A stretch of 39,250 nucleotides of DNA from Nitrososphaeraceae archaeon (GTDB lineage Archaea > Thermoproteota > Nitrososphaeria > Nitrososphaerales > Nitrososphaeraceae), in NCBI GenBank assembly GCA_035250975.1, contig DATFEP010000086.1, positions 1 to 39,250 of the forward strand, read 5' to 3'. Under the pieces are notes generated by a model. The model ran no database searches, was not told the DNA's origin, and saw only the letters and a program-made list of their open reading frames with translations. The position numbers were made by a program, and so were the translations under genes. How positions within the stretch are numbered: the first letter of the stretch is position 1; every line of letters starts with the position of its first letter. Of the stretch, positions 30,631 through 32,811 are shown piece after piece.

Positions 30631-30725
30631 CAACTTATCGATTTCACTTAATATATCATGTATTTTTAATTACTGATTCGTTTGAGGATGGTAAAATTAA
30701 TTAAAAAGATAAAATAACATAACCT

Positions 30726-30866
30726 ATGCTTAATGAAACAGTAAATACATGTTCCTTCTGTAATTCTAAAGCGCTTTCCGGTTATAGTCTCTGTTCCAAA
30801 TGTATGAAATTGTATAACATTTCGGTTAGTGAAAATGAGCTAGATGGTTGTGGATGTGATAAATAA
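30726..30866 (+). CDS. 46-aa Cys-rich microprotein (not in ORF track)
   Basis: MLNETVNTCSFCNSKALSGYSLCSKCMKLYNISVSENELDGCGCDK*; CxxC-x10-CxxC plus CGC; TTAATTAA at 30697-30704. Confidence 0.7.
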   Translation: MLNETVNTCSFCNSKALSGYSLCSKCMKLYNISVSENELDGCGCDK

Positions 30867-30918
30867 AAAATTCCATGCTGTTTAATATTTTTTATATTAC
30901 CAGTATTTATTTCCTTAG

Positions 30919-30984
30919 AGGGTCAGAAAATGGTATCTTTTATCATGTAGTTTTTATCATACAGCCACCACGTCATCATTCCCT
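30919..30984 (-). ncRNA. Box C/D 2'-O-methylation guide sRNA
   Basis: Minus strand: AGGG-A-[C: AUGAUGA]-CGUGGUGGCUGU-[D': AUGA]-UAAAAACUAC-[C': AUGAUAA]-AAGAUACCAUUUU-[D: CUGA]-CCCU. Terminal stem AGGG/CCCU, 12- and 13-nt guides. Confidence 0.75.
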
Positions 30985-30989
30985 GCAAT

Positions 30990-31535
30990 TTAACTAAATC
31001 CTATACTATCTAACAAGTCTTGCGCTTTTTTCTTTAATTTGTTATCTATCTTTACCACGACTATTCCTTCTAGTGGTTGTCCATAAAGAACTACCGATTG
31101 GTCTCGAGCCAATGCAAAAACTGGGAGCGCTAGCAAATCCTCTTCTCCATCTACAAACACCATTGCATGTTCATTCCTCTCGACTATTTTTTCTATTATA
31201 TCATAGGCTTCTTTTGAGATAGTTCCCTGTCTGTTAGTACATTTATAAAATTTTATTTTATTTTTATTTGAATAAGCTTTTATTATTTCTGAATTCTTGA
31301 GTTCTGGTCTCCTTATTCTTCTTTCTACGCCATCAATTATTGCTATTTTCGGATAAATGCCATATGATAAGATTCTTTCCGTGGTCGCATCACCAACAGT
31401 AACTATAGTTGTCTGGTTGTCGTCCTTATAGCTGTCAATTATCTTTATTATATTCTCTTTAGTGATGTTTTGCTTTTTTATTAGAGCTCCAAATGGTTTT
31501 TTTAAAATACTTAAATGTTCTTCTTTTACTGGCAT
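30990..31535 (-). CDS. GTP-dependent dephospho-CoA kinase (DUF359)
   Basis: LKKPFG, VGDATT, IIDG, DGEEDLLALP, YGQPLEG. Confidence 0.9.
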   Translation of the reverse strand: MPVKEEHLSILKKPFGALIKKQNITKENIIKIIDSYKDDNQTTIVTVGDATTERILSYGIYPKIAIIDGVERRIRRPELKNSEIIKAYSNKNKIKFYKCTNRQGTISKEAYDIIEKIVERNEHAMVFVDGEEDLLALPVFALARDQSVVLYGQPLEGIVVVKIDNKLKKKAQDLLDSIGFS

Positions 31536-31552: not shown

Positions 31553-32647
31553 TCAATTACTAGCTTCATTCTTAGTTTCTTGTTCAGATTGTTCTCGACT
31601 ATTCATTTCCGAAGCTAACACACTGATTCTACCTGCTACTGATTTGGCTATCTTTAGGAATGCTTGACTTTGTGAAGACTCAGGTTCTGAGATAACAGTT
31701 GGTTTTCCAGTATCACTTCCTTGCATAATCTGTGGATGCAATGGAATTTCCCCTAAATACGGTATGTTGAATTGTTCACTTATTTTTAGCCCTCCCCCTG
31801 AACCGAAAATATGAACGTCAGATTTACAATGAGGGCATTGAAGATAACTCATATTTTCTACCACTCCAATTATTGGAACATTTAATTTGTTGAACATCCC
31901 AATTGCTTTCACTGCAACATTCATTGCTATATCTTGTGGAGTTGTAACCACCAAGATTCCAGTTATTGGAATGGTTTGTGCTATAGTTAATGGAGCATCT
32001 CCAGTACCTGGAGGAAGGTCGATGATGAGGTAATCTAGATCACCCCAATTAACATCAGTCAAGAATTGTTTAATTATTCCAGAAATTATCGGTCCTCGGT
32101 AAATTCCAGCCTGTTGAGATTGTTCGTAGAAAAAACCCATAGAAATTATCTTCACGCCATCTGCGATTGGTGGCTGAATCTTATTTTTTTCTACCATTGG
32201 TGTATCTTTTAATCCAAACATCAATGGAACGCTTGGCCCATAGATATCAGCGTCTAAAAGTCCAACCTTAGCACCTGTTTTAGCAAGAGATAATGCCAAA
32301 TTTACCGAAACTGTTGTTTTCCCAACTCCCCCTTTTCCACTCGCTACTGCTATAATATTCTTAACTCCAGGCAACAATTCGTCCAATGATATTGCCCTAC
32401 CTTCCATAACTCTGGCAGTAACTCTAAGATCTAGATCTGCCACCCCCAAGTTGGCAATAGTGTTTCTTACATCTTGTTCTATTTCACTATTAAATGGACA
32501 TGCAGGAGTAGTAAGTTCCAGAGTAAAAGATACTTTATTATTATTAATATCCAGATCTTTGATCATTCCCATTGAAACTATATCTTTATGTAATTCGGGG
32601 TCAACAACTTTTTTCAATGAGGTGAGAACTTGATCAACTGTAACCAT
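31553..32647 (-). CDS. mrp: Mrp/ApbC/NBP35 iron-sulfur cluster carrier ATPase
   Basis: N-terminal DUF59 (DPEL, TTPACP), SGKGGVGKT, DADIYGPS, DLPPGTGD, ENMSYLQCPHC. Start ATG 32647. Confidence 0.93.
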   Translation of the reverse strand: MVTVDQVLTSLKKVVDPELHKDIVSMGMIKDLDINNNKVSFTLELTTPACPFNSEIEQDVRNTIANLGVADLDLRVTARVMEGRAISLDELLPGVKNIIAVASGKGGVGKTTVSVNLALSLAKTGAKVGLLDADIYGPSVPLMFGLKDTPMVEKNKIQPPIADGVKIISMGFFYEQSQQAGIYRGPIISGIIKQFLTDVNWGDLDYLIIDLPPGTGDAPLTIAQTIPITGILVVTTPQDIAMNVAVKAIGMFNKLNVPIIGVVENMSYLQCPHCKSDVHIFGSGGGLKISEQFNIPYLGEIPLHPQIMQGSDTGKPTVISEPESSQSQAFLKIAKSVAGRISVLASEMNSREQSEQETKNEASN

Positions 32648-32670
32648 GCTGAAAACAAAATATTCGACAA

Positions 32671-32680
32671 TATTTAAATA
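32671..32680 (-). promoter_or_regulatory. Putative TATA box of the mrp-DUF359-sRNA transcript
   Basis: TATTTAAATA 24-33 nt upstream of the mrp ATG. Confidence 0.5.
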
Positions 32681-32811
32681 TTCATTTATACAAGACGAAA
32701 TTGGAACAAGTACATTAATAATAACTACTGTTGCTTGGTAATCTACTCTGAGATACATCTATTTAAACAAAAAGTTCATAAATTGATATAATACATCCTA
32801 ATTGGTCTAGA

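Follow-up and report, generated by a model that had tools for sequence, protein, structure and literature searches.

A conserved box C/D small RNA gene behind DUF359 in ammonia-oxidising archaea and its predicted target in the 16S decoding loop

Several archaeal box C/D small RNAs (sRNAs) are directed at helix 18 of the 16S ribosomal RNA (rRNA), among them Tte sR114, Iho sR21 and Pca sR28 as well as Sac sR115. In the excerpts of Dennis 2015 (PMC4644070) on which we draw, they are RNAs of about 60 nucleotides (nt) with C, D', C' and D boxes whose D' guide points to the decoding loop of helix 18 and whose second guide addresses another 16S site close by. Their guide is conserved across species and the target is set by the fifth guide nucleotide upstream of the D or D' box (N+5 rule) in a particle with L7Ae, Nop5 and fibrillarin. 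The same excerpts describe helix 18 as a hotspot, with 23 predictions at 13 positions in five of seven species and none in the only mesophile studied, M. maripaludis (7 sRNAs), and allow a predicted duplex no more than 1 mismatch and 2 G-U pairs. The element described here is a 66-nt unit on the minus strand (30919..30984) of a 39,250-nt stretch of DNA from a Nitrososphaeraceae archaeon (contig DATFEP010000086.1 of assembly GCA_035250975.1), referred to in full as the window. It resembles these RNAs in size, box content, direction of its two candidate guides, conservation of the guide and presumed mechanism. It is almost certainly a genuine and functional archaeal box C/D sRNA gene. The explanation that we consider likely for the evidence as a whole is a conserved C/D sRNA guiding methylation of 16S C522, for which we infer the steps of transcription, processing, assembly and methylation.

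Organization and conservation of the sRNA gene

The limits of the 66-nt gene were defined by sequence reading, by the ends of BLAST similarity and by covariance model R1 (see below). Read from position 30984 to position 30919, its layout is AGGG-AA-UGAUGA-CGUGGUGGCUGU-AUGA-UAAAAACUAC-AUGAUAA-AAGAUACCAUUUU-CUGA-CCCU, in which A plus UGAUGA is the C box. The terminal stem is made of AGGG (30981..30984) paired with CCCU (30919..30922). The C box AUGAUGA (30973..30979) and the D box CUGA (30923..30926) are canonical. The 12-nt D' guide CGUGGUGGCUGU (30961..30972) has its G at 30965 five nucleotides upstream of the D' box, a variant AUGA (30957..30960) located 12 nt after the C box. The 10-nt D'-C' loop UAAAAACUAC (30947..30956) is followed by a degenerate C' box AUGAUAA (30940..30946) and by the 13-nt D guide AAGAUACCAUUUU (30927..30939), whose A at 30931 lies five nucleotides upstream of the D box. 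An earlier reading of the window, made from its sequence only, had reported complete C, D', C' and D boxes: all four are present and the outer two are canonical, but D' and C' are variants. Variant sequences are common in the internal boxes of box C/D sRNAs, and two orthologues (L033, L034) have the canonical CUGA in the D' columns. The kink-turn (K-turn) geometry proposed in that reading fits by sequence, with the AGGG/CCCU stem, an AAU bulge and GA facing AG, and the stem pairing is kept in orthologues. The 5' end of the element lies, as had been stated, 5 nt past the stop codon of the DUF359 gene on the same strand; that strand, as a correction to the earlier reading, is the minus one. An Rfam 15 search of the window gave 0 matches at gathering scores. 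At the sequence level the element has the C and D boxes, the terminal stem, the internal boxes with spacers of about 12 nt and the guide complementarity that identify a box C/D sRNA. Folding of the free RNA is unremarkable (z -1.19; 24 of 200 shuffles fold as well). A guide-to-guide pairing (GUGGUG with UACCAU) predicted in the self-fold is lost outside the genus and was discarded.

A BLAST search with a 101-nt query found matches at E<1e-5 in 23 of the 24 genomes of the same genus. The similarity runs from query positions 17/18 to 81-83, a stretch that coincides with the 66-nt unit, and a regular expression recognized a complete C/D RNA of 59-75 nt in all 34 loci selected by BLAST. The alignment holds 49 of 63 orthologues, the other 14 having been left out by eye as identical or near-identical to kept rows. 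Twenty-five of its columns are invariant: UGAUGA of the C box, GGUGGCU of the D' guide, UGA of both the D' and C' boxes, CUGA of the D box (49/49) and G/C of the stem. Orthologues measure 57-75 nt, with variation within the D guide and the D'-C' loop, the latter differing in both length and sequence. Covariance model R1, built on this alignment, gives one strong match per genome in 35 of 36 same-family genomes and also finds the gene in families f4 (2/2), f9 (2/2) and f13 (1/1), with one weak match in f16. Its score on the window copy, itself part of the model, is 67.9 bits. Genomes G241 and G018 have no orthologue by R1. Across 401 genomes sampled evenly from the phylum, a pattern composed of the C box, the guide and D' is found as a single copy in 55 of the 59 genomes of the same order and in 1 of 341 genomes outside the order, with 0 occurrences of the reversed pattern. 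Orthologues are present in 55 of the 56 Nitrosopumilaceae-type genomes sampled, and three of the four same-order genomes missed by the pattern carry the sRNA with the C box AUGAGGA. This C box is seen at loci L137, L138 and L139, from three genomes of one Nitrosopumilaceae-type genus, where the guide and the D' and D boxes are intact and G replaces the U that faces the D-box U.

Pairing in the terminal stem is maintained through this range. The GGG/CCC pairs are retained in 47-49 of the 49 orthologues, while the outer pair occurs as six pair types (GU 11, AU 8, GC 7, UA 2, CG 1, UG 1; unpaired 9). Taking the terminal stem together with two box-box pairs, 94.7% of the cells pair versus 90.2 +/- 0.8 in shuffles, a value reached in 0 of 500, and position 1 of D' and position 6 of C' form an A-U pair in 44 of the 49. 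The sequence-only reading had made its case depend on conserved boxes and had proposed looking for conservation behind DUF359. The 49 aligned orthologues do conserve the boxes, and the gene order Mrp-DUF359-sRNA is kept in 59 of 60 orthologous loci (29/30 in a first set and 30/30 in a second). Identity between the DUF359 proteins has dropped to 33-57%, whereas the boxes and guide of the sRNA are unchanged. By these comparisons the sRNA is the founder of a family conserved, nearly unchanged, in ammonia-oxidising archaea.

Predicted targets of the two guides and competing explanations

The partial 16S rRNA gene of the same organism (contig C25, cut at the contig end) contains GGUGUCAGCCGCCGCGGUAAUACC. 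The conserved archaeal complement named in the sequence-only reading is therefore present in the organism's own gene. The D' guide pairs with CAGCCGCCGCG over 11 base pairs (bp), 9 Watson-Crick and 2 G-U, as had been claimed, and the duplex stays within the published limits for mismatches and G-U pairs given above. The G at 30965, N+5 from D', is opposite the C of CAG[C]CG at C25 position 301 and forms a G-C pair with it. We take this position to be E. coli C522, on the assumption that GUGYCAGCMGCCGCGGUAA begins at 515, and the target stretch to be E. coli 519-529 in the '530' decoding loop of helix 18; the earlier assignment of the fifth nucleotide to C522 stands on that numbering. The target is identical in 19 of 19 16S genes of relatives. 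On the guide side, the core GGUGGCU (positions 3-9 from D') is invariant in 49/49, position 2 is G in 46, and position 10 holds either U (27) or C (22), both of which pair with 16S G527. All 49 orthologues form 9-12 contiguous 16S pairs that include position 5, always as a G-C Watson-Crick pair, and the duplex has a second G-U in the window's genus. The D' guide most likely directs ribose methylation of one cytidine in the small-subunit decoding loop, with 16S C522 as its probable true target.

Two unrelated, well-formed C/D RNAs found elsewhere in the phylum, in distant families, carry a D guide that meets C522 in the same register. That of genome G282 (L145:1500-1560, minus; G282:C1) reads GUGAUGA-12 nt-CUGA-UAU-GUGCUGA-AGUGGCGGCUGU-CUGA, and this genome contains its 16S target. 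The other (L125 = G405:C21) has the guide GGUGGCGGCUAA-CUGA; the 16S target pattern was not found in the G405 assembly. The G282 guide AGUGGCGGCUGU is one base off the commonest D' guide of the window's genus, AGUGGUGGCUGU, and its register gives the same predicted 2'-O-methylated C522 (Cm522). It differs from the window sRNA in occupying the D position instead of D' and in having C, not U, opposite G524, and its other guide and its flanks are unrelated; genome G282 is from another family of the same phylum.

The D guide differs between lineages, as is usual among archaeal C/D RNAs, with a core UACCA at positions 5-9 from D that is kept within the genus. Its best site in the organism's own 16S is AAAAUGGUGU, on the 3' strand of helix 17 (10 bp, one G-U), where the U facing N+5 is position 337 of C25 and lies 36 nt upstream of C522. 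This site is also the best for the mean of 14 genus variants (14.39), a value reached by 23 of 500 column-permuted guide sets. The 7-nt match to the 5' strand of helix 18 that the earlier reading had offered as uncertain scores lower (genus mean 11.61): its caution about the D-guide target was justified, but not its choice of site. Position 1176 of 16S (genus mean 11.5, in spite of 12 pairs in G025 of a neighbouring genus) and position 1371 (12.46) were also rejected. Nothing convincing was found for the D guide in two Nitrosopumilaceae-type genomes, and the best guide match among 22 transfer RNAs (tRNAs) predicted by Aragorn in the organism's own assembly, an incomplete set, is 8 contiguous pairs. 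Helix 17 is put forward as a tentative D-guide target, which these pairing scores suggest as a possibility short of a probable one.

A number of observations speak against this account of the two guides. A site in rRNA that is equal or better is found by 146 of 2000 shuffled D' guides, so that the D' pairing, weak statistically when taken by itself, proves little alone, and the invariance of the 16S target means that guide-target covariation cannot be assessed. Position 7 of the D' guide is U in 49/49, which imposes a permanent G-U with 16S G524, and a guide selected for 16S only should tolerate C there, as the G282 and G405 guides do. For the D guide, 141 of 2000 shuffled versions find an equal or better rRNA site, position 4 varies between U, A, G and C in the genus with an unchanged helix-17 target, and a U-to-C change in that target is not matched by the guide. 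The window copy is the single case of A/A at D' position 1 and C' position 6, and its C' box is degenerate. With R1, 18 genomes from 15 further families of the order yielded no match at E<=0.01. When the 2.49-Mb genome is scanned strictly for the full box pattern, there is 1 match, the sRNA, versus 1 in the reversed-sequence control; the box pattern alone thus cannot carry the claim, and the sRNA rises above chance because it is conserved in relatives. Fibrillarin (PF01269) and Nop5 (PF01798) were not found in the organism's own assembly, which is 94.6% complete. They are each over cut-off in 59 of 60 relatives, as adjacent genes, and their joint absence is probably due to one unassembled stretch. 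The contigs from RNA libraries described below give no ends, strand or size, and such libraries can contain DNA. Finally, 44 of the 49 orthologous D' guides form nine contiguous pairs, position 5 included, with a site in 23S rRNA.

This last site, GCAGCCA(U/C)CC, is in helix 43, part of the GTPase-associated centre. A real C/D sRNA whose D' guide targets it, instead of or besides 16S, is a live alternative to the target named in the sequence-only reading, whose 16S pairing itself holds, and we judge it unlikely. The methyl would fall on the C of GCAG[C], presumably about C1075 in E. coli numbering. All 5 of the 5 23S genes in which the region could be located carry the site, three with AUC and two with ACC; in G048 the helix-43 region was not found in the stretch examined. 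The invariant U at position 7 would be Watson-Crick with the 23S A, and positions 11 and 12, purine in 47 and 37 of the 49, would pair with the next two 23S U. U7 and G8 are, moreover, the only bases pairing with both the 16S and the 23S sequences, and one guide with two targets has been described in archaea according to the excerpts of Dennis 2015 (PMC4644070). Yet position 10 is mismatched to 23S in 49/49 and nevertheless limited to U or C as 16S G527 requires, the duplex is shorter (8-9 bp versus 9-12), the AUC form has G-U at positions 1 and 8, and the score is at chance level, the mean best of shuffled guides being 16.2 versus about 15 by a hand count with the same scoring. The C at position 7 of the G282 and G405 guides is compatible with 16S but not with the helix-43 site, and the hotspots that Dennis 2015 (PMC4644070) names in the available part do not include helix 43. 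A perfect 9-bp 23S site seen in one genome (G044) was lineage-specific; it is absent from the other genomes, hence due to chance, and was rejected. A single D' guide serving both subunits, through 16S helix 18 and 23S helix 43, is in our judgement quite unlikely. U7 and G8 would then be kept because only they pair with G524 and C525 as well as with the 23S A and U/C, and, if true, one RNA would methylate or chaperone both the decoding loop and the factor-binding centre of the large subunit.

Two further explanations dispense with guided methylation. The element might act mainly as a folding chaperone of rRNA, or, bound by L7Ae, as a 3' element in the DUF359 messenger RNA (mRNA), in a particle that is catalytically poor because of its G-U-containing duplex and degenerate C'/D' boxes. 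The permanent G-U at position 7 and the second G-U of the window's genus, the AUGA and AUGAUAA boxes, the strict linkage to DUF359 and the 36 nt that separate the two guides' candidate targets in one 16S domain all agree with this proposal, and the excerpts of Dennis 2015 (PMC4644070) and Breuer 2021 put forward a chaperone role for guides with nearby targets. An mRNA K-turn, however, has no need for an invariant 7-nt core in register with D' across the order; position 5 is always G-C Watson-Crick with the target, two G-U pairs are allowed by the accepted prediction criteria, and methylation and chaperoning are compatible. We regard the absence of productive methylation as improbable. A chance box pattern in an A+T-rich spacer, or a part of a plus-strand small open reading frame (ORF) of 40 amino acids (aa) at 30875..30997, would account for the strict match in the reversed genome, the overlap of this ORF with the element, the lack of any hit at Rfam gathering score and the ordinary folding energy (z -1.19, 24/200 shuffles). 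Against it stand a single orthologue per genome in four to five families, boxes and guide that are invariant while flanks diverge, a covarying terminal stem, and indels found only in the loop. Because the lengths of 57-75 nt do not change in steps of three, the 40-aa ORF was rejected. This reading is highly improbable and, at the level of sequence comparison, is already contradicted by the conservation data. Methylation of 16S C522 directed by the D' guide of a conserved C/D sRNA is the explanation retained in what follows.

Expression, machinery and gene neighbourhood

Contigs from two soil metatranscriptome studies cover the sRNA and the 3' part of the DUF359 gene (X3, 30865-31158; X6, 30741-31133). 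Contig X1 (30686-31177), from a run whose RNA status is a guess, covers them as well, and run X5 gave no contig over the element. X1, X3 and X6 have no difference inside 30919-30984, with differences at 30887, 30898, 30902, 30915 and 30918 and from 31008 onwards. These contigs are compatible with co-transcription and with constraint on the sRNA. Most archaeal C/D genes are without their own promoter and many lie at most 25 nt from an ORF, and the box motifs alone are enough for sRNA maturation, as stated in the excerpts of Breuer 2021, which fits the arrangement behind DUF359. L7Ae is encoded in the organism's own genome. Its assembly has no 23S rRNA gene, which is read as an assembly gap.

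The proposed course of events builds on the anatomy, conservation, synteny, complementary target and presence of the machinery in the clade, all directly observed. The sRNA would probably be co-transcribed with the DUF359 gene and then trimmed to about 66 nt. L7Ae would bind the K-turn of C/D as well as the K-loop of C'/D', with Nop5 and fibrillarin completing the particle. The 12-nt D' guide would then pair with 16S 519-529 in the helix-18 decoding loop and fibrillarin would methylate the 2'-O of C522, the partner of the N+5 guide base from D'. The faster-evolving D guide would, in the window's genus, most likely pair with the 3' strand of helix 17 if with any of the sites considered. As this site lies 36 nt upstream of C522, the sRNA may also aid local folding of the 16S precursor rRNA.

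The DUF359 gene (30990..31535, minus) matches Pfam PF04019 with E 1.8e-36 and codes for a protein similar to GTP-dependent dephospho-CoA kinase. Its nearest NCBIfam model, NF041125 for that enzyme, is matched with 88.6 bits versus an equivalog cut-off of 300 bits; this score, far under the cut-off, makes the kinase function likely but not assured. Upstream of it, also on the minus strand, is a gene for a Mrp/NUBPL-type ATPase (31553..32758). In the listed ORF, about 37 codons precede the part that matches the family (FeS_assembly_P, from residue 42), and translation probably starts at the internal Met of MVTVDQ... A 46-aa ORF on the plus strand (30726-30866), which converges on the sRNA 3' end, carries CxxC...CxxC and a C-terminal GCGC motif. 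It has no Pfam match and possibly codes for a small zinc-ribbon protein.

Other C/D-like sequences were noted in the same genome, where a relaxed scan gave 4 real matches versus 0 in the reversed control. A second compact C/D-like RNA at C81:83660-83718 (+), cggg AUGAUGA AAACUUUG CUGA UCG AUGAUGA AAGCACUAGGGUAU CUGA ccgg, has perfect C and C' boxes. An 85-nt candidate at C81:75999-76083 (+) comes from the relaxed scan, and within the 12 nt before its CUGA, 10 nt are perfectly complementary to 23S rRNA from the relative G016, near position 880. A fourth relaxed-scan match at C40:5195-5253 (+), AUGAUGA ... CUGA with a 3-bp stem, has no rRNA match and hence may be due to chance.

Relation to known box C/D RNAs

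The Rfam families nearest to the sRNA are seen when the search is run in E-value mode. Seven of the eight weak matches are then full-length C/D small nucleolar RNA (snoRNA) families on the same strand and at the same place, including the eukaryotic SNORD123, SNORD73, SNORD34, SNORD20 and U83 and the archaeal sR11. The best is SNORD123 with 21.4 bits (E 0.12; threshold 45). The seven families align end to end with the sRNA (E 0.12-7.9) because of the common C/D architecture, which is the extent of the likeness. The scores of 13.9-21.4 bits versus gathering values of 38-55 bits and the unrelated guides set the sRNA apart, so that it is not a member of those families. No published description of methylation-guide RNAs in ammonia-oxidising archaea was found in a search that had subscription journals and genome-browser annotations outside its scope. 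Queries for box sRNA with Nitrosopumilus found none, those with Thaumarchaeota none on the subject by title, and those for snoRNA, fibrillarin or L7Ae with these taxa nothing relevant.

Ammonia-oxidising archaea are among the most abundant archaea. The family defined here can be annotated in them at a fixed address behind DUF359, and it predicts Cm522 in the 530 loop. The excerpts of Dennis 2015 (PMC4644070) tie this site to decoding fidelity and to the streptomycin response. The sRNA family itself appears to be new, while its mechanism is of a known kind, helix-18 C/D guides having been described already; because this mechanism is textbook, the value of the family lies in annotation and in a clean test case of guide conservation, not in a new principle. 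With the known helix-18 archaeal guides it has no detectable sequence-family relation, as no Rfam archaeal sRNA family matches at threshold. In the part of PMC4644070 available to us those guides are predicted on A535 and G515, in E. coli numbering, in thermophiles, and the window sRNA is predicted on C522 in a mesophilic lineage. A helix-18 guide would thus be kept in mesophiles, in contrast to the sole mesophile studied earlier, which has none in helix 18.

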